A stretch of DNA of 64,000 nt from positions 15,934,001 through 15,998,000 of the forward strand of contig OX597826.1 of NCBI GenBank assembly GCA_951406725.2, given 5' to 3'. This document shows, one piece after another, positions 1,200 to 59,600 of this stretch (position 1 is its first letter; every line of letters starts with the position of its first letter). A model generated the notes under the pieces. It made no database searches. It saw only the letters and a list, made by a program, of their open reading frames with translations, and had not been told where the DNA came from. The DNA is from Octopus vulgaris (lineage: Eukaryota). Both the position numbers and the translations under genes were made by a program.

Positions 1200-1270
1200 C
1201 GGTTACTGATGAGAATCCGCCTAGCAAATAATCTTAGTTGCTAAAAAAATTTGAAACCTAGGTATAACCG
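1200..1270 (+). ncRNA. Type I hammerhead ribozyme motif, family A (Penelope-like/retrozyme type)
   Basis: CGGTTA-CTGATGA-[stem II GAAT/ATTT enclosing TAGCAA/TTGCTA hairpin]-GAAA-CCTAGG-TA-TAACCG: perfect 6-bp stem I, intact core, palindromic stem III ACCTAGGT. Confidence 0.85.
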
Positions 1271-4948: not shown

Positions 4949-5623
4949 ACATATATACATATATATATAGAGAGAGACCCTCCTATGACACACCTACACC
5001 TGTACATATACAAACATATGCACCAGACACAGTCTTACACTCATAGTCATACATATACACACAAGTACACATTCACACAATTAGAAAGGAAAAATTGAAA
5101 AAATATATATAAAAAAAATAAAATATTTAAAATTACAAATTAATGAAAGTTAAAACATATGGAAAAGCTTGTGCAGGAACATTGTAAAAATGTTGATTCT
5201 AGCCGTGTTTTGGTGGGGCCGGAAACCGTAACAGATATTGTGTGACATATGGAAATGATTGCAAAACTTCAGTTCTTCGATTGAGACATGTAGTGGGGTT
5301 CAATGAACTTTTCCAGATGAGCCGTCTTTCCATATTAGAAAGGCCGCACTTGCCTCTAACGTTGGTATAAAGTTTACACTTGGCTAAGATCTTCCAGTAA
5401 ATCATGTAGGTGACACCTTGTTCTTTTAAGAACCATATATAATTGGATAATTATATATACGTATAAATGTCTAAACATATATGCATTATGTCACGTGGAT
5501 GCAAACACCTATGTGTATTTAAGGATGAGGTTGCGTACTGTTTGTTCTAAATTATAACATATATAAATAATCCTCTATTTTTCTAATTTCGCGGTTACTA
5601 CTTCTGTTACTACTTTTTATTAG

Positions 5624-5664
<41 letters not shown>

Positions 5665-5668
<4 letters not shown>

Positions 5669-6946
5669 TACCGGCAATTGCTAGAAATAAGAGTAAAAGA
5701 AAATAACTCGAATAGCTACACAAAGCACTAACCTCATGAATTGATGGAAAGTGAGGGAGCGACCTAGATCATATTTATATAGCACGATAAACTCACAAAA
5801 TGAAGTAAACAGACATAATCTTATCACGTGGTTTCGAACTCTGATTATTATAATCTTAGTTTCTCATCAGAGGGTCTTACTGATATTCCGGTTTAAAATG
5901 GGTAGTTCGCCTCGTACAACTCATGAGAAAAACCGTTATCCGGTTAAAGTGTAAAGTGTAAATACAATAAGAATTAGTATATCAAATTATTAAAATATGT
6001 TAAATACATTATAACACAGGTGACCCGTTAGCAATTATAACCTACAGGCAAGTTAATAAACAAAAGTAAACATTAGTACCGGCAGTTGCTAGAAAAAAAG
6101 AGTAAAAAATAAACCTGCTCGAATAGTTACACAAAGCACTAACCTCATGAATTGGGGGAAAGTGAGGGACCGATTTACAACAACTCTCCATGATGAGATA
6201 AACTCAGAAAATGAAATATTCAGACATATCGTTACCATGTGATTTTGAAACGTCATCATTATAACCTTAGTTTGCATCAGAGGATCTTACTGATACTCCA
6301 GGTTAAAAGGAGTTGGGCGTCACGTGCAACACATGAGAAAAAGTTTTGAAAGCCAGCGCTAACTTAAAAACGGTGAAGGAGTATGTCAACTCATGAGTCT
6401 AATGCTGTGTGTGACCATTCGAACCGGTTTTGTGTTCACTCTTATTTCCAGCAATTACCGGTACTTATTTGTACCCTTGTTCATTTACTTACCTTTAGGT
6501 TTTAATTGCTAATGGGCCACCTATATTATGATGTATTTAATATTTTTAATATATTAATATATTATAATATCTTATTGTATTTATACTATAAGTTTGAGCG
6601 TTTTGAATTTAGCGCTGGCTTTCAACTGTTTTTCTCATGAGTATCTCAGGCGGGATGCTCTTTTTTATTCCGGAGTATTAGTAAGATCTTCTCATGAGAA
6701 CTAAGGTTATAATGATTAGAGATCCAAATCACGTGATAAGGTTATGTCTGTTTACTTATTTTTGTAAGTTTGTCTCACCATGGAGAGGTGCTTTAGATCG
6801 CTCCCTCGCTTTCCCTCAATCCATGAGGTTAGTGCTTTGTGTGGCTATGCGAGTCCTTTCTTTTTTATTTTGAATCTTATTTCTAGCAATTGCCGGTATT
6901 AATGTATACCGTTGTTTCTTAACTTGGCTTGAGGTTTTAATTGCTA
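5665..6946. repeat. ~408-bp HHR-bearing monomer (family D): two direct copies then an inverted copy
   Basis: TTAGTACCGGCA at 5665 and 6073; reverse-complement copy ~6436-6946. Confidence 0.9.
5817..5875 (-). ncRNA. Hammerhead motif family D (best copy; decayed copies 6228-6285 minus, 6686-6743 plus)
   Basis: CTGATGA-GAAAC...GTTC-GAAA-CCACGTGA-TA; three-copy consensus ATCCT-CTGATGA-GAAC..GTTC-GAAA-TCACGTGA-TA-AGG(A/T)T. Confidence 0.75.
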
Positions 6947-7244
6947 TGTATCGTTACTTGGGATATTTGGTTGTTATACCACTGAAGCAGAGCGAAATCA
7001 CGTTAGCTGGTTGACGGTTATCATGTGTCATCCATATAAATGCAAGTGCTTTTATGCACAACGGCTCCAAATAAGAGTTCTTAAGGTAAGTAAAACAGTA
7101 TTCTGTATTGTAACTCAGCCTCCACGTTGTGTTGAGGATAGGATTGACTTTATATGCATGTACACACACAAATGCACGCACAAACATATCTATATCTATA
7201 TACATACATATATATGTGAATATATACATATATATGTATGTATG

Positions 7245-24400: not shown

Positions 24401-26935
24401 TGGCGTAGAACTAGACCCCAGTTTGGAAACAAAAAGTTACAAGAAAGGTTTTTAACCATGTCCCCAAATATGTTACTATATTTTTCTAACTCAGACGTTT
24501 CAATATCTGCTGATATATTTTCACATGGGAAATGATGTGTATTGATATAATTTGAATCACCAAATTATAAAAATATGATCTCATATTCTCGTATAGCATG
24601 CCTATACGAGGCCTGCACGAATTTACTTAAATCATATCAAAACTACTTATTATAGTTTAACAATCTATAATTCTAGCCGCACGTAAGTATATTTATGTGT
24701 CTCTGAAAGAACGTAAAATATTCTTCTTTTTTTATGCCATACATTGTTGAATAGCTTTTGTTTATTATCATGCATAGTGTTGCGATTTTCACTTCATTTA
24801 GTTTCCAGACATTATAAAGCAACATGATTTTATTTCGCACATTTCTAAACTTTGTTACTGTTACTAAAATAGACTTACATTTTCATATAAATGTATGAAA
24901 TATTTGAAATGATAGTTGGAGATACAAATACCTGTGTGCCGGACCACGGTTTTTCCTTTTATTTCCACTTCCATGCAATTAATGGCAATATGATGCCCTA
25001 AAGGAAAAGATTCTGAAGCGAAAACTATGTTTTCCGGACTATCGCATATCAGATTACTGGAACTCTAGTACTTAATTTTTCTCACTCTGCATGCTTTCTG
25101 TGCTTTTTATATACACACTTATTTTCCGGTAGACATATTCCGGCATGCATATACTCCAAACTCCATTACATGCATACGCAATTGTACTCACTCAAGTACA
25201 CGCTAATATATGTTTATATGTATACATTTATATACGTATACTAGTGAGCATACATGCATACATATGCGCGCGTGCATGTATATTTGTGCTTGAATGCATT
25301 CTCATATGCATGCCTCTGAAAATGAATAGTCTTTTTCCTTCGATTCTAAAAAATCGATAAACTGTTTTTGATAGCGAATGCATTTTACAGACAACAATGT
25401 TTTAGAATTTATAATATTTAAAAGTTCGTTCATGCTTCTGCTGGAGTTTATGTTTTATAACTTTGCGGAATGCTATTTATCTTCGTGATAAATAGAATTT
25501 AGAATAACCGAATAAACTGTTTAGCTTATACTCTTTTAACAGGCAATAACAAGTTACATAAAAATAATAATAATAATAATTGTATTTAATGTTTGCATGT
25601 AGCATATATATAACCCACACCTTTACGCATTCTCTGATTGAAGTGGGGAAATAAAAATAAAAATAGTGCCTTATTTTTATCCATATTTTAGCTAAATTTG
25701 AATATATAGCAGGGACACACTTTCAGCAATTGGATCTAATCATATCGTTGCACATATATCGGAAATTTTGATTTTATTCAAAGAAGTAAATAGTATGGAT
25801 ATTTTGCATTTAACATATTGAGAAAATATAACTATTTACGTCTTACTGATGCATCGTATTCAATAGTCTGTAACAAGTACAAACGTGAAAAAGATATTAT
25901 ATAAATCTATTTTTTTCCAATGACATATTATACAAGTTGGAAGTCTTCAGTGCCACATTGCATGATAATACGATGCGTCTATAAATCTCCAAATTTTAAT
26001 CAAGCACCAAATTTAAAGATCATCATGAATATTATTTATACAGTAAAATTATGTCCACAATCATTATTGAAAAAATTATATTTTGAATGATGTCTTGCAA
26101 ACTACTTGCACATGCAAGTGCTACCAGTATACCGGAAGCCAGGAAGTATATGGGGTCATCAGGAGAGAATGTGCGCCGTTTCGGGGCCTACATCGCGACG
26201 GCATCAATGCGCACCGGCCGCCCTCACTGATATGAGGCCCCGCTTGCTAGATCAGCTGATTATCAAATTAAGCTCAATATCCTTCTAGCCATCGCTCATT
26301 GTCTCTTTTTAACCAAATCCAGTGGCTAGCATTCTCGACTGTAGATTGGATATCGGTCATGGTGGTATTGACTTTACGATGAGTTAGGCCTAGCGATAAC
26401 AACAGTCGTCTCACAATGCGTCCAACGAACCCTCTACATTGTAAATATTACAATGTGACACATTCTGAAATAAGAGTAATCTCGAAATACTATCTGTTCC
26501 TTACAAATTGCACATTATGCCAATAACATATAGCAATATAATGAAAAGGTTGATATGTTCCTAATATATAAGTTTACGAACACAATTCGATTAGCCTGAC
26601 ACTATGTTTCCGATATCGTAGCCGTATCCTTCTCAAGAGTATGCGAACCTTTTATCAGTCTTCATCATTTATAACTAAGGTATTGGGTCACACTGGAAGA
26701 TCAGGAATTTTTCAAATTTGTTCAATCGATATGAATCACAAAATGCACATTCAAGTAAATGTTCTCTAAACCTATCGAGAAAAATCGACCTAAAAAAATC
26801 TGTTTTATTATCTTGATTTACGATTTAGTAAAGTTACATTTTTTAATTACTGATTTTTGGACATAATGCAAACTCTTGTACCAATTAAAGTAAGTATATA
26901 TTTCTAAGGAATGGTATTTTAATATACAACTATTG

Positions 26936-27245
<310 letters not shown>

Positions 27246-27256
27246 TACTCTTTCCA

Positions 27257-28292
<1,036 letters not shown>

Positions 28293-34981: not shown

Positions 34982-35944
34982 GTATTTACACAGCTAACGT
35001 CAATGATATCCATTAGATAAAAATGCAGTGAGCCTTCACCACCTACTATTTTTTAATAATAGTATATGAAGGTCGTTTAGATATGTGCCTATATTACTGA
35101 CGTTATTTTCAAGCTTATGACTTTATGACTTTCTCATATATCTGCCCTAATGTTATAGCGATACCCTCAATAAATATCATGTGGTATAACCTTTATCACA
35201 ATGGTGCAATACTGTACTAAACGCCTGTTTATTTACGCAGGAGGTTTGTAGTAATTTTATGAGGATTCACCTACTGTTTCGCACATCATTAAAATTTGGT
35301 GAACTGAGCTAATAGGCCCCACATTACTGATACTTCGACAGGAGACCTGACATGCTTTCAAATCTCCCACACCTGTATTTAAATTAAAAATATATAGTGC
35401 ATTTCCATTTGGCAAGTAAATCCCAGCTTTGAAGATTTATAACGTATAAGCGGGCGCTATGCACTTTTATCAGCAGAAGTAGCGTTCGTGGAAATTGTCA
35501 GGTGTGAGTACTGAGGGAATTAGTTTGAAATTATGTTGACGTGAGAAAGGATTAGTGAGACTTATAAAACAAGACATTTACTTGCTATTGAAGCTTTTTA
35601 CAAACCGACCAAATTATACTGAAAAAGATTGAATATTCCCAATCAGTTGTATTTCTGTTTGCATGAAAGTATTTTGGGATTAAGGATCAAACTCGCAGCT
35701 GAGAGATATTATTTCTAATTGCACCTAAATAAGATCCGAATGACTAGGTTTATTCAATATTGGCAAAGAGTGCAAAGCTGCCAAGCACGAAATTCTCAAA
35801 ATTTTCAAAGGGAAAATTTTCGAAAGGAACCGATATATATTTAAACAATAAAACAGTAATAGTAATAATAAAAAATTGCTGCTACTTATTTTTCGGATGC
35901 TTAAAAGATTAGAGACAAATAAACTCATTTACCAAAACTCAATA

Positions 35945-36360
35945 TATATTCTCCCAGCATGTTGGTCCATTTTTTTTTTTGCTGATTTCCTTCACTTTCC
36001 TAACTGAAATGATTAGTTCTGCCTGTTTTGGACAGACTACTGTTTGTTTCAGTTCTTGCAACCATTCAGTATCCTTCTTGTGCTCCTTGTCTTTGCTCCA
36101 CATGTCAATCCAAAACCTTTGACTTTCAATGCTATCTGGTATCAACTTTTCATTTGTACACTCTCCATTTATTTCTTTATAGAATCTCTTCTGATGTATT
36201 CTGAACAACCTCTTCTGGTGGTAACCCTTCTTTCTTTGGTCGTATCTTATCATCTTTGCTTTCTTTGCAACGAGTCGTTGTTTCAGTTCTTCTACTACTA
36301 CTTTCAAACATTTAAAAAACAAATTAAATTTCCGTTTCAGCGCCCTGTATTTTTGTTCGC
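35945..36360 (-). mobile_element. R4/Dong-like LINE pre-RT fragment
   Basis: EELKQRLVAK..RYDQR..QKRFYKEI..SQRFW.DMWS...EWL; homologous to 57640-57880. Confidence 0.8.
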
Positions 36361-36364
36361 ATTT

Positions 36365-37732
36365 AAGCTCCCGCAGCTCTGCGTGCCTTGGGTATCTGCT
36401 GTGGTTTGTTTTTGTGCTCTTATGGCTACTGCACTGAAAGTGTTTTACGTTGGATGTTTGCGGTGTCTATTAGTGCTATTTCCTGTGTGCTATATATACT
36501 TGTTAATCCTGGCGCTTTTGTTATATATTTATCTGAGTATTTTTTATCATACCTACTGCCCTTATTATGATAGGAATTGTTTCTGTTTTTAGACTCCGCA
36601 TTCGATTTACCTGTACTTCCAGATCTTTGTATTTTGATATTTTCTATATTCCCTTTAGAGAAACGGTGTTATCTGTTGGTATTGATACTTCGATTTGAAA
36701 GCATTTCTTTTTTCTTGATCTTCTCTGACAACTATATCCGGCCTATTGGCCTTAATTTCTCTATTTGTATGTATTGGCATATCTAACAGTATTGTTGCTT
36801 TCTCATTTCCTGTAACCTTTTCGGACGTGTGCCTATGTCATTACTTTTCTGTTGTTATTCCATAGTGTTGGCATAGCTTCCAGTATATATAGATCCTAAC
36901 TCTGTCGCGTCTGTGTATGTACTTCTTCTTAGCCAGGACTGGGCGGCCAGATACATATTCTGAAGTTACTTGTTATGTTTCATTTCATTATATGTTTTTG
37001 GCAATTTCTTATGGGGAGGCTTTGGTATTGTGCTGCAATTAAAAGTCCTTCAGTCTATGCTTTGAGTTCTGAGCTTCTTAAATATTGTTGGGATTTTGCT
37101 TAGTCTATTTCTTTTGCTTTTCGTTTAACCCAGCTTTCATGCTATCATTTTATCATGCTCCGCTGCCGTTTTAGTTTTAGTTTAGATTTCACGTGTTTTA
37201 CAGCTGTGTCTTCTTCTTCTTCATACTTTTTAGGTAGTATGACTTGCTTTTGTAGTCGTCAGCTTCCTTAAAGTGATTATTTCTATTAGTTTTCCTTGCT
37301 CCTGAAGTAGGCATTTTTGTCGTCCTATGATAGTTATTTTGTAATAGTTTTCTAGTTGTATAAGGCCTGCATCACTTTTCTATACGTCGCAAATATATAT
37401 ATAACCTTTCTATATTAGATTTTGGGTGGTCCATCCTAAATACTGTCACCATTTTGTTGTTTTCCGGTGTAATTTGAGTAGTTCATTTAGTCCAGTTAAG
37501 GATACCGTAGCTGTAACATATAACTAGGACACCTGAAATGTTGATACCTATTATCTTGTTTTTCGCATTGAGCTCTGTTTTCATTATTACTCTAACTCAT
37601 CTATAGTATTCCCTTTTTATTTTCTCTTTCATTTGTGTGTCGTATCGTACCTTCATTATTGATTCCTAAGTATTTGTATGTCTGGCTTTGATCCAATTCT
37701 CTTACTTCATTTGCTTTATCTAGCGTGATGTC
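36365..37732 (-). mobile_element. R4/Dong-like LINE 3' half, decayed
   Basis: TYKYLGI, MKTELNAKNKIIGIN, IEVSIPTD, SKYKDLEV; 3' UTR similar to 18270-18357. Confidence 0.85.
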
Positions 37733-43300: not shown

Positions 43301-43659
43301 AGATAAAAGAACTAACACGGCACACACACAAAAACATATTTGCAAACGCCTCGAACACACAAAAACATATTCATATACATTTTGGGAGAAAAATATCTCA
43401 TTTGAATTTGACAGTGCTGGGAAAAGCCTGTTTCAGTAGATAATTTCATTTATTAATTTTTATTTAGATATGTATAGCATGTGAGAACAGAGTCCCAATA
43501 CATAATAAGATACCGGCGAAAGCTTAATTTTACTACGAATGTCAATTAATCCCGATTATTGTGTTGAGAGGTTCATTACGCCAATAATAATAACACACGC
43601 ACTCGTTCAATATCACTTCTTTTTTCTTAGCCGATTGGTTAAATATCCAACCAACTAAG

Positions 43660-43892
43660 TAAGAGAAGAGGAATTATATACATTATTTACATTTGACAGT
43701 TATTTGCCTCATCTTGTTTGTTGTTAACACAGTGTTTCGGCTGATATACCCTCCAGCCTTCATCAGGTGTCTTGGGGGAAATTTCGAAACTGGGTTCTCC
43801 TTCCTAAGGTATTTTTCGATGTTATTGTTGTTATTGTTCAGGTCACTGCTTGGAATCGAATTTGGAATCTTGGAGTTAGTAGCCCGCGCTCT
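43660..43892 (-). mobile_element. Compact solo family C element (tRNA head, short linker, HHR at 43726-43771)
   Basis: GACAC-CTGATGA-A-GGCTG..CAGCC-GAAA-CA-CT-GTGTT (cleavage triplet mutated); linker only ~20 bp. Confidence 0.85.
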
Positions 43893-44099
43893 TTCTATCT
43901 ATAAATATACATAATACCTCGACCAAGTTCGGCGACGATTGAGATAAATGTGTGATAATTTATAAACGTGCGTATATATTCACAGTCACAAACAGAAACT
44001 CATGCGCACACACAGACGTTCGCTCATTATTATTAATTTACATATACGTATATACATGCGTATAGACAGCAGACATACAGATAGATATATAGATTTATG

Positions 44100-49598: not shown

Positions 49599-50794
49599 TT
49601 GAGTCATTCCACAAATAACGTGATTTTTTATAATTCTATTTTTTCAAACTTAGTATAAACAGTTATTTTTTTAATCTAAAATATACTCTTCTTCATTTTC
49701 TAGAATGCTTTTCCATCAATCTTGTAGACTTGCAAGGCCCCTCTTCCAAAATTCAGTTGTCGGTGACGAAAAGTACTCTTCCAGTACTGTTCTGACCTCT
49801 TCTAACGAATTCATAATCGTGCCGTCCAAAATCATTTGGATGGAAGAAAGTTTAAAACTGCTCCAGTCTTTGGAATGTCATCCTCACTATATGTGGCCAA
49901 GTATCATCCTTATGGAAGAACACCTTTCGTCTTGAAACCAAATATGGTCGTTTTTCTTGTAGCGCTGGCTTAATTCCACTCAAGCTGCTCGCAGTAGATC
50001 TCCTTTGTTATCGTTTGGTTTGGGTTTAAATGTTTATAGTGGACTAAACGTTTCATATCCCACCAAACAAATAACAACACCTTACCTGAGTGAAGACCTT
50101 TAGCCTGGAGTGCCGGTGTTCACCTTTCCCTCCCAACTGTCTTCGGCGCTTGACATTTTTATATAGAACCCATTTCTCGTCACCAGTCATTATTCGGTCT
50201 AAAAAGAAGAGCACACACTCAGTCACTGTGCACGTTTAGACTCGGAAATTTTGTGAGGAGCCCACCGACCCAATTTGCTGACTTTTGCGATGGCACTTAG
50301 GTGTCTATGAATGGTTGAATGACCAAATCCAAGTTTATATGCTAGTTTCTCAGCAATAACGATGGGATTTTGTTCTACCATGGTCTTAGGGACTGCCTTA
50401 TCGAGCTCTACAGATCGTCCAGATCGTCCAGGACGAGATTCGTCATCTAGGCCGTCGTTTCTGGCTCGGAAATTCTTGAACCACCGTTGATACTGGCTTA
50501 CGCTTATTGTCCAATCACCATATACTGCATTAATATTCCTCGCACTTACCGTTGTGTTCTTGCCTTTTTTCTTGAACTCATAAAGCAAACTATACGAAAT
50601 ATGCTCCTTTGTCACTTCCATTAAACATTTGAAAAAATAACTGTTAAAATCAAACTGCCCTCTTCAAAACTTGCACTAAGAATAAGTTCATGTTAAATTT
50701 ACTACCTGCTTTTATAGAAAGTTGATGCAGGTAGTTCCCTTACAACTTTTAGTTTATGCAATTGAAAAAACGCCTTATTTATGGAATGCCCCAA
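49599..50794 (-). mobile_element. Near full-length decayed mariner (Mos1-like) with TIRs and TA TSD
   Basis: TIRs TTGAGTCATTCCACAAATAA / TTATTTATGGAATGCCCCAA; ORF 50223-50621 has HTH, RPGR and WAPHKI; downstream TGDEKWVLY. Confidence 0.92.
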
Positions 50795-55799: not shown

Positions 55800-56188
55800 T
55801 GTTAACTGCAAGCGTAAACAGATTGTTTATAAATAGAAAGAATGGTGGCAGAGAACTAATTAGTATAGACCATTGTATAAGGAGTGAAAGGAGAATGCTT
55901 GCCGAGTATTTGATAAATAGCAACGAAGATCTGCTGCAATATACCGGGAACCATATTATTATTAGAAATATTGCATTTCTAAATTTCTCAGAGAGATTTA
56001 TGTAGTAGCAGCACGATAAAGTGATGGTGTGTTGCCAACTTAATGTGACAGTCCCAGGAAAGGGAAGAATGCCATTGCTATTACGCCCCAGGAAACACCA
56101 TTTCCAGTTGATTGTGTGACACAAGCGTTCCCTGTCCTTCAGTTTTCAAACAGGGGAGATAAACACCACCACTCAGCAAAGTCAGCAA

Positions 56189-56229
56189 CCAGAGACTAGT
56201 TTCAGAATCATTATTCTTCCTCAGCCTGG
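56189..56229 (-). ncRNA. Type I hammerhead ribozyme family F, canonical
   Basis: CCAGG-CTGAGGA-AGAAT-aatg-ATTCT-GAAA-CTAG-TC-TCTGG: GUC cleavage triplet, palindromic ACTAGT. Confidence 0.92.
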
Positions 56230-56466
56230 ATTACTTTGGGATGATAGCTGTCGATGCTTCTTCGCTTTTGAAAACTTATAGAATTTCAGGTGAAATAAAT
56301 TCATTTCGACAGTATGTTGGCAACAAACCATCACTTTATCGTGCTGCTACTGTATAAGTCTCTGTGAGAGATTTAGAAATTTTGTAGATCAGTTAATTTA
56401 TTTCATTCGAATTTCTATAAGTTTTCAAAGGAGAATAGGCATCGACAGCTAGCAAGCCATTCTACT

Positions 56467-56507
56467 CGAGACTGATGATGAGCAATGACTCTGAAACTAG
56501 TCTCTGG
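56467..56507 (+). ncRNA. Type I hammerhead ribozyme family F
   Basis: CGAGA-CTGATGA-TGAG-caatga-CTCT-GAAA-CTAG-TC-TCTGG; closing pair of stem II mismatched. Confidence 0.8.
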
Positions 56508-56699
56508 TTGCTGGCTTTGCTGGCTGGAGATGTTTGTCTCTCCTGTTTGAAAATTTAAGGACACAGAACGTTTGTGTCACATACCCAACTGAAAACGGTG
56601 TTTCCTGGGGCTAAATAGCAGTAGCATTCTTACTTTTATTGGGACTTCCACATTCAGCTGGCAGTAAGCCATCATCAATATCTATAATATTATTATAAT

Positions 56700-59600
56700 T
56701 TTAAATGCTATTGGTAGAAAGTTTGTGGTAATGATAATCACTGTGGTTATAGAATCGAGAATGGTTATAGAATCGAGAATGAAGCTATAGCCGATCATTG
56801 CGAAGGTTTCCCTCCCGGCAGGTCCGAAACAGCCAGCATCAGGAGCAGTGATCAGGCGTCGGACGGTCGTTATGTCGCAAAAGATCATATACACTGTTAG
56901 CGGAAACACAGACGTAAGTGCACGAAGGAAGTGTACGATACATCTATTGAATGGCATGAAAGAGCAAAGCTGAAAATAAGTCGTGGAGTTGGACGACGAA
57001 TCTTGAAACTTGGGATGGAAAAGGACACGTAGCCAATGTCAGAAAATAAACTATTGAACATAAGAGGGAGGATTACTTACTTGGAGTAGAAATATGTCGT
57101 ATTAATGAGTCTGAGATATCCTGCGGGTTGGTCGGGGTTGAAAACAGAGAGGTAGGAGTTAAACGCAGGGAGAAGAGTAGACAGGAGGAACAAGGGAATG
57201 GTGATGGAGCTGTTAAGAATGAGGAAAAGGAACGATATATACAATGAACACTGATAATGTGGTGGGTGGACATGCTGATTAAAATGAACCAACTAGACTT
57301 GATGAATGCTCTAGAAGCAAATATCCCCATGAATAAGAGAAGAGTAGATAGGAGAATGAAAAATAAAGTTACACAAATGGTAAATACTCTCATGCTGTAC
57401 ATCCAGACGGAGAACATAAAGCAAACAAGGAATCTTCTCCGAGCTATTGAGCTACTTGTTGAGGAGAAATTACAACTTGAAAGTGGAAGCCACGCATTGA
57501 AAAGGACATAATGCAGGCAAGGCAAGATCTATGAAAAACTGAACAATAGTTAAGAGGAAACTGGAAAAATGGGAAAATGTTTGACTGAGAAAAATAAGAC
57601 AAGAAATTCAAAATACGAAAGGGCGGGTTTGATGCAGTAATAGAGCAGTTAAAACAGAGGATCGTGGTAAAAAGCCAGGAGATCAGAAGATTTGTGAACA
57701 GAAAGAAGCAGTTCATGTAGAACATATTGTTCGAAAATAAGTCGAAGCAATTCTTCCGAACGTTAGAAGAAGACAATTGGGACAATGTTGCTCCTGATGC
57801 AAATCAAGCCAAGGAGTTCTGGAACGAAATATGGGGAAACAATGTGGTGCATAAAAGGGATGCAATATGGATAGGAATTATCAGGACATAATTATAAGGA
57901 GGAAAGAAACAAAGGAATATTGTCATAAGCACTGGTAATGTAAAAGGACAAGTGGGTAAAGTGCCTAACTGGAAAGCCCCCGGACCAGATGGGATTCATG
58001 GCTTCTGGATGAAGAGATGCCATGCAGTGCATGAAAGAATAGAAGGCTAATTAAATGAGTGTGTCCAGAAAGGTACACACCTCGCGTGGATGGTGACTGG
58101 GAGGACAACACTTCTAATGAAAGATAGAAGAAAGGGGAATATTGTGGGAAAGTACTGACTAAACTTAATCTGGAACATACTCACTGGAACAGGAAGAAAT
58201 ACTACGAAGGGAACAAAAAGGATGTAGGAAGATTACTCAGGGTACTAAGGGTCACCTGGAAATCGATAAAATAGTTCTGACGCATTGTAAAAAAACATCA
58301 TACAAACATGTTTATGAATTGTATTAACTTTAAGAAGACATATGATATGCCTCATTCTTGGATCGTTGATTGCCTGCAGATATTTAGTGTTGCTGACAAC
58401 ATCACAAATTTTCTGATGCATAGCATGGAAGAATGCAAAGCCAAATTGTACTCAAGTAACGTATTCCTTGGAGAAGTTAATATTAAAAGGGGTATCTTCT
58501 AAGGCGACATTTTTCTCCGTTACTTTTTGTAATTGCACTAATACCCATAACAATGGCACTTACACTTAGGAAGGTTAAGATGGGTTACCGATGAGGGAAT
58601 AAAGGCTCATCATTGAAACATCTGTTTATGGATGACCTGAAAATGTTTGGGAAATCTGAAAACCAGATAGGCTCCTTAACCAAAACAATCCAGAAGTGTG
58701 GTAGGGAGATCGGTATGGAATTTGGGATTACCGAATGCTCAGTACTTAATATGAAAAAGGAAGAAAGCATCCTGCAGATGATTACGGTTAACATCAGGAG
58801 AGACAATGGGTGAACCCGACGTTAGTGGGGAGATATATTTAGGGATTTTTGAGCTGGATAACATTCTACACAGAGAAATGAAAGCCAAGGTCAGCTAGGC
58901 GCATCAAAAAGTGTGAAGATGGTGTTGAATACCTAAAATTTGTTTACCGCAAGGAATATCTGGGCAATTGCAGGGGCCAGATATAGTGCGTCCATCCTCA
59001 AATAGACTAAGGAGGAAATATCAACACTGGGTAGCAGGACGAGAAATTGATGACGCTGCAAGGGGCGCTACACCCTAAAGCAAACGTAAACAGATTGTAT
59101 ATGAGAAGAAAGAAAGGTGGCAGGTGACTAATTAGTATAGACCATTGTATAAGGAGTGAAAGGAGACGGTTGCTGAGTATTTGGTAAATAGTGATGAAGA
59201 CCTGCTGTATTATGCTGTGCAAGATATGGGTGTAAATGTAGATTAAATGATGGCCAATGAGGAGTTTAACCAAAGTGTTGAGAAGAGAAAAGAAGACCTT
59301 CTTGAAATGAGAATGCATTTGAAAGGAATACACAAGACCTTAAGGATAATAGAGCATCGTGGGCATGGTGAGTTTGAGGTGATTTCAAGCGCATCACTGA
59401 AAGCCTGACCATTGCTGCACAAGACCAGGCTCTCGCTACCAATTCAGTGAAGTATAACATCTATAAAACTTCTGACATCCAGAAATGCAGACTCTTTGGA
59501 AATTGTGTAGAAAATGTGACTCACTTAATAAGTGCATGTGAGAGCCTTGCACAAAAAGAATACTAGGGTCGCCACGATTAATTCTGTGTTTTCATTGGCT

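Follow-up and report, generated by a model that had tools for sequence, protein, structure and literature searches.

How did a short repeat that encodes no protein come to lie in two head-to-head arms beside a microsatellite, and which enzymes put it there? This question is raised by positions 5664-6946 of a 64,000-nucleotide stretch of Octopus vulgaris contig OX597826.1, hereafter called the window. The locus is made of four segments of one repeat, U1 to U4, organised into two arms which, read on the hammerhead strand, diverge from about position 6388. Each arm consists of a 5'-truncated unit followed by a full unit. In the left arm, U2 (6029..6388, minus strand) is the 5'-truncated unit and includes a tail region at 6029-6071, while the full unit U1 (5664..6028, minus strand) ends at a short 3' end without tail. 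In the right arm (6386-6946, 561 bp), a 126-nt 5'-truncated unit devoid of hammerhead, U4 (6386..6511, plus strand), precedes the full 435-bp unit U3 (6512..6946, plus strand), which ends at a long end. The arms align with each other over 526 columns with 75% identity (E-value 2e-96), and a block of about 19-20 nt present in U2 and U3 is absent from U1. No further copy was found within the window, the remaining matches being at most 32 nt long with E-values of at least 0.02. The initial annotation had described a direct repeat of period 408 within a tandem and inverted array. The period is correct: in the left arm, the unit ends are spaced 408 apart, and positions within the units 410-411. Both arms of the array are present as well, but the direct arm (5664-6388) comprises only about 1.8 units and the inverted unit, with its spacing of 435, is 435 bp long rather than 408.

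The inversion junction (6386..6389) joins the arms head-to-head, and about 3-4 nt (TCAA) at this place are compatible with both of them. They possibly represent a microhomology, a tentative reading that requires a 28-nt deletion in U2. An assembly artefact was ruled out by single contigs running across this junction in all three DNA runs, X2, X4 and X8, which carry three organism labels. The bridging contigs cover 5788-6521 in X2 (4 differences), 5788-6521 in X4 (22 differences and 22 gaps) and 6295-6569 in X8 (14 differences), and the right end is also bridged by an X8 contig (6742-7104, 4 differences). Since the same insertion is found under three organism labels, it is older than the split of those organisms. 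The repeat copies differ from each other far more than the orthologues do.

One hammerhead ribozyme per unit had been announced. A relic is indeed found in every unit long enough to contain it, which applies to only three of the four segments, and no copy is intact, with four core changes across the three copies. The U1 relic (5817..5875, minus strand, predicted cut after 5822) keeps the CUGAUGA, GAAA and UA core; its stems I and III are mismatched and its stem II contains a 1-nt insertion. The U2 relic (6228..6285, minus strand, predicted cut after 6233) and the U3 relic (6686..6743, plus strand, predicted cut after 6738) exhibit two core changes each, A9C and G12C in U2 and G5C and G12C in U3 in the usual core numbering. 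From these changes both ribozymes are predicted to be dead, the palindromic stem III of U3 being intact. The monomer comprised between the two predicted same-strand cuts of U1 and U2 would measure 411 nt, yet one of these cuts relies on the U2 ribozyme. Rfam models at their gathering score gave no match in the entire 64-kb window, and the 10 weak matches located in 5400-7200 included no hammerhead family.

The proposal that an intact ancestor with defined stems could be reconstructed from the decayed copies was confirmed using contigs from other loci. Among these contigs, the letter at 5818 is changed from A to T in 16, 15 and 11 cases in X2, X4 and X8, respectively, that at 5831 from G to A in 18, 17 and 12, that at 5874 from G to A in 1, 4 and 2, and that at 6722 from A to T in 7, 1 and 3, while a 1-nt gap at 5862 occurs in 0, 1 and 1 contigs; these variants were taken from 40 of 258 contig rows listed. 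When U1 is restored with the contig letters, and with position 5819 set as in U2 and U3 (two of the three copies), stems I-III reach 5/5/5 pairs around an exact core. A descriptor requiring stems of at least 5, 4 and 3 pairs returned no match on 9.6 million nt of a first-order Markov control, which is a lenient control because the U1 edit was picked after the fact. The elements of a type I hammerhead (CUGANGA, GAAA, UH, three stems and the type I order) are thus gathered in the family form and in no single copy. Stem III of the restored form is a 10-nt palindrome, and palindromic helices III have been associated with dimeric activity (PMC4209133). The same work describes minimal hammerheads of Penelope-like elements (PLEs) with a 5-bp helix I, an extended helix II, a palindromic helix III and opposite-strand motif pairs 100-700 bp apart, all features shared by our family, whose opposite-strand relics are likewise a few hundred bp apart. 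Unlike these minimal forms, the restored hammerhead lacks an unpaired base on the 5' side of helix II, and its helix III could hold 3 pairs by itself, which brings it nearer to the canonical invertebrate type. In the restored 90-nt piece, the hammerhead fold (-14.3 kcal/mol) lies 3.6 kcal/mol above the minimum-energy fold (-17.9 kcal/mol), so activity is not implied. When the three copies were folded as a consensus, the hammerhead fold was not recovered (covariation term of +1.35, two-sided changes in 4 of 70 pairs).

The description of the locus as a retrozyme-like hammerhead repeat is well founded. Metazoan non-LTR retrozymes are defined as tandem units of 150-450 bp with low GC content, one type I hammerhead each and no ORF (PMC7229834; bioRxiv 10.64898/2026.07.22.740005), and the present repeat has a period of 408-435, a GC content of 35%, a type I motif and no ORF of at least 100 amino acids in 5665-6930. 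Two or more consecutive complete hammerheads, by which the bioRxiv study defines an active retrozyme, are lacking here, since the core of U2 is mutated and the stems of U1 are broken, and the element is predicted to be inactive now. The inverted arm and the tail set the locus apart, as neither is used as evidence in the available sections of the two retrozyme studies.

The position of the ends relative to the cut site is informative. Counted from the cut site, the left arm continues for 158 nt and then meets a (TA)19 microsatellite (5627..5665, period 2, 19.5 copies), which is likely the target site or an expansion of it; the last 5 nt or so of U1 could equally belong to the TA run. The corresponding distance is 208 nt in the right arm and 204 nt in the inner unit U2, which reaches the same long end. 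Neither arm therefore terminates at the cut site: their ends fall within one region of the unit, that of the right arm lying 38-43 nt further than that of the left arm, an asymmetry that had been overlooked. This one-sided 3' extension, or tail, corresponds to 6904..6946 on the plus strand and closes with 8 nt that are reverse-complementary to 6884-6891. A stem enclosing the tail folds in all three copies and is not significant (z-scores of -1.5, -1.5 and -0.3). The locus had initially been interpreted as the fossil of a rolling-circle-type cDNA. As it stands, this interpretation explains neither the inverted arm nor ends lying 158 and 208 nt past the cut rather than at the cut.

These features recall the insertions of endonuclease-bearing PLEs (Penelope/Poseidon, Neptune). 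PLE copies are reported to form partial tandems, to carry at their 5' end an inverted copy that is itself 5'-truncated, to favour microsatellites and to bear a tail of 30-40 bp, often on one end only (PMC8557442); head-to-head is their usual orientation, with a microhomology junction (PMC3846280). In vitro, AT-rich DNA is nicked on both strands by a PLE protein, which extends both of them and starts reverse transcription internally at two sites, the distance between which corresponds to the tail (PMC11167929). At our locus, an inverted 5'-truncated copy is joined head-to-head, both arms are partial tandems with a truncated copy upstream of a full one, and a tail of 38-43 nt is found at one end only, the AT-rich microsatellite flank being at the other; type I hammerheads with palindromic stem III lie upstream of the 3' ends. 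As the published hallmarks are matched one by one, we favour a PLE-type insertion: the locus is probably a PLE-derived repeat that encodes no protein, carries relics of type I hammerheads and was inserted long ago, as head-to-head partial tandems, by PLE enzymes acting in trans. Elements of this kind are already known: the locus behaves as an old, decayed insertion of PLE type and has the build of a retrozyme. The tail criterion is weakened by the TA run at the tail-less end, where a tail may have been lost afterwards. Two further differences from endonuclease-bearing PLEs should be noted: each unit directly follows another one, with no RT/GIY-YIG ORF between the repeats, and no target-site duplication was seen, the two flanks sharing no word of 5 nt or more, with the left end at (TA)19. 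No empty site was found among the 15 joints listed out of 49.

By analogy with the characterised PLE enzymes, from which all the enzymatic steps are borrowed, the insertion could have proceeded as follows. A read-through RNA of more than one unit, uncut by its own ribozyme and most likely linear, would have been bound by a PLE protein, whose endonuclease would have nicked both strands of the AT-rich target. Reverse transcription would then have been primed internally at the two sites bounding the tail, one per strand, and would have given two cDNAs, both incomplete (about 725 and 561 nt), whose 5'-truncated ends were joined, perhaps via a few shared bases. Afterwards, each copy would have lost about 12% of its letters, core positions included. 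An uncut template agrees with the sole PLE tested in vitro, which used unprocessed RNA and for which ribozyme cleavage was dispensable; in this anole PLE the start sites lie about 85-92 nt past the cut (111-118 nt into the ORF, the cut being at 26), as compared to 158-208 nt at our locus (PMC11167929).

Most PLE copies are truncated (PMC8557442) and hammerheads are located in the pLTRs of PLEs (PMC4209133), so the arms could also be 5'-truncated stumps of an autonomous PLE with a doubled pLTR at its source locus, without any independent non-autonomous family. An ORF combining a telomerase-like RT and a GIY-YIG endonuclease, which characterises autonomous PLEs, is absent from the locus, and a six-frame scan of the window with four RT/GIY-YIG motifs gave 1 unconvincing match. 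The sequences of many related contigs diverge from the unit at 6529 or 6492 and are varied beyond these points. In addition, a frame starting from an ATG inside the hammerhead core is open over 51 codons in all three copies, and the pLTR includes the ORF start in two described PLEs (PMC11167929, PMC3846280). This frame was rejected as a coding relic: its conservation is unremarkable under neutral decay (P 0.15), its variable columns are distributed as 15/17/12 by codon position, and no Pfam family was detected at the cut-off. Moreover, the sequence upstream of the full unit is in both arms the tail of another unit and never coding sequence. We therefore regard the stump explanation as quite improbable.

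A second hammerhead family of the window, unrelated to the first (best local score between families of 29, against 340 within the second family), repeats the same geometry. It occupies 55975-56674, where two arms meet head-to-head at about 56305 and share 80% identity over 280 columns. It forms a partial tandem, carries a 47-nt tail on its left arm and ends 172 and 219 nt beyond the cut. The left-arm hammerhead satisfies our descriptor with stems of 5/5/3, and no stem enclosing the tail was detected (z-scores of 0.1 and -0.1). This recurrence provides internal support for the PLE-type reading of 5664-6946. It also bears on the idea that the array grew locally from one old unit, by duplication and inversion through unequal crossover and fold-back repair, or by serial insertion of further copies into the first one. 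A PLE endonuclease can cut its own pLTR (PMC11167929), local tandem growth of pLTRs has been proposed (bioRxiv 10.64898/2026.07.22.740005), and clustered differences between copies, presented below, would fit templates of different origin. Duplication in place would however neither position the outer ends at tail boundaries nor recur in the second family, and it predicts one pair of segments much more alike than the others, which is not seen. Such a build-up thus appears very improbable. A third family is represented by a solo type I hammerhead at 1200-1270 (plus strand), well-formed, with a 6-bp stem I, a long stem II and a palindromic stem III, which sits between TA microsatellites at 957-1046 and 1483-1545. 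It lies 218 nt before a TA run; as there is a single copy, this end is tentative. Among the local hammerheads, this one is the strongest candidate for activity.

We then considered the nature of the template for the preferred PLE-type insertion. Pairwise identities of the six segment pairs range from 74.6 to 77.4% with no within-arm excess. Private changes amount to 22, 31 and 28 in 295 columns, or about 12% per copy, core positions have changed at a similar rate to the rest, and there is no codon-position or synonymous bias. Decay looks neutral. This star-like divergence, as from one template, is what would be obtained if the template were a circular RNA of about 410-435 nt, produced by ribozyme cleavage and ligation and lapped by the reverse transcriptase into cDNAs of 1.3 and 1.8 units. 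Retrozyme circles of 170-400 nt exist in coral, mussel and axolotl, and PLEs have been named as candidate mobilisers (PMC7229834); moreover, internal priming would require no free RNA 3' end. A homogeneous linear multimer nevertheless predicts the same pattern, which fits a homogeneous template followed by neutral decay equally for a circle and for a linear multimer. The differences between copies are also clustered (p 0.00025), with 15 of 266 columns different in all copies against 5-7 expected, which is not predicted by one template and uniform decay; copy-specific blocks of this kind fit heterogeneous templates better than one circle. Integration from a circular template is in our opinion fairly unlikely.

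Among the clustered changes, one block is peculiar to U1 (about 5765-5785) and another to U3 (about 6640-6660), with 8 and 9 private changes per 20 columns, respectively (p 0.0004 and 0.0008). The U3 block folds into a hairpin of 9 pairs (-12.2 kcal/mol). Template-switch mutation at near-palindromes is a mechanism able to yield clustered changes, and the blocks could be explained by such mutations or by templates from different family members. A heterodimer template grouping U1 with U3 and U2 with U4 found no support: among 81 columns, 2 support it and 1 supports another split, and U2 and U4 are the least similar pair, contrary to this grouping. A broader claim would be that, in this animal, a Penelope reverse transcriptase priming internally copies the ORF-less hammerhead repeats from their circular RNAs; we estimate it to be unlikely. 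If true, the locus would directly preserve in the genome the trace of retrotransposition from a circular template, and the 3' ends of three unrelated families, which lie almost equally far from the cut (204-208, 219 and, tentatively, 218 nt), would reflect a shared RNA layout read by the PLE protein.

The family is also represented at other loci of the genome. At a threshold of at least 80% identity, 560, 470 and 304 contigs were retrieved in the three DNA runs, many of them lying on the different repeat of the left flank, and summed contig depths were not taken as copy number. Single hammerhead positions are covered by up to 18 contigs per run, and position 6530 by up to 21. In all three DNA runs, the unit boundary 6511/6512 is spanned by contigs about 83-89% identical that come from other loci; these make up 8 of the 32 pieces listed. 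A tail followed by the next unit is therefore a family trait, and multi-unit copies are not unique to this locus. No contig piece with two hammerheads was found among the 32 listed (1458 others exist). In X14, a run guessed to be RNA, 25 contigs were found, some of which are 82-87% similar to the repeat; they possibly derive from DNA or intron carry-over and were set aside as evidence. A 185-nt X14 contig matches 6449-6529 (81 nt without difference), then departs from the window, and many related contigs likewise depart at 6529; such a departure might mark a chimeric contig, a different allele or a third end. The left flank (5330-5452 and about 5513-5595) is made of pieces of another, more abundant repeat, with loose ends at 5452 and 5536 and the highest contig depth.

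We found no description of this family in the articles searched, and exact motif scans recovered 0 loci in metagenome contigs and 0 in viral contigs. By itself, the locus is a dead repeat of little consequence, useful as an example. Animal non-LTR retrozymes have been proposed to derive from the pLTRs of PLEs, a derivation reported for those of Xenopus, where 1 of 9 dimers tested was cleaved; that study describes its own evidence on the life cycle as limited and states that other animals were not covered in depth (bioRxiv 10.64898/2026.07.22.740005). The link between animal retrozymes and PLEs has so far consisted of co-occurrence and of pLTR phylogeny in vertebrates. An ORF-less repeat bearing the tail and inversion signature of PLEs thus makes it possible to ask, at low cost and from genomes, which elements mobilise such repeats, and young copies could discriminate circular from linear templates.

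Other elements of the window were recorded. Decayed LINE-like coding remnants, which we presume to be of R4/Dong type, are found at about 57400-59600 (plus strand), with a piece at 55808-55942, and also at 35939-36466 and 17580-18264/36446-37101; Pfam detected no family in the LINE-like ORF pieces tried, some of which came from the opposite strand. The N-terminus of a mariner-type transposase lies at 50223-50663 on the minus strand (Pfam HTH_48, E-value 2e-12). Finally, a dispersed family of repeats of about 150-270 bp is located at 2175-2764, 26932-27332, 27790-28292 and 43656-43893, beside (TAT)n/(AAT)n runs, and forms inverted pairs in several places with 80-91% identity. The window has the general aspect of a repeat-rich animal genome.
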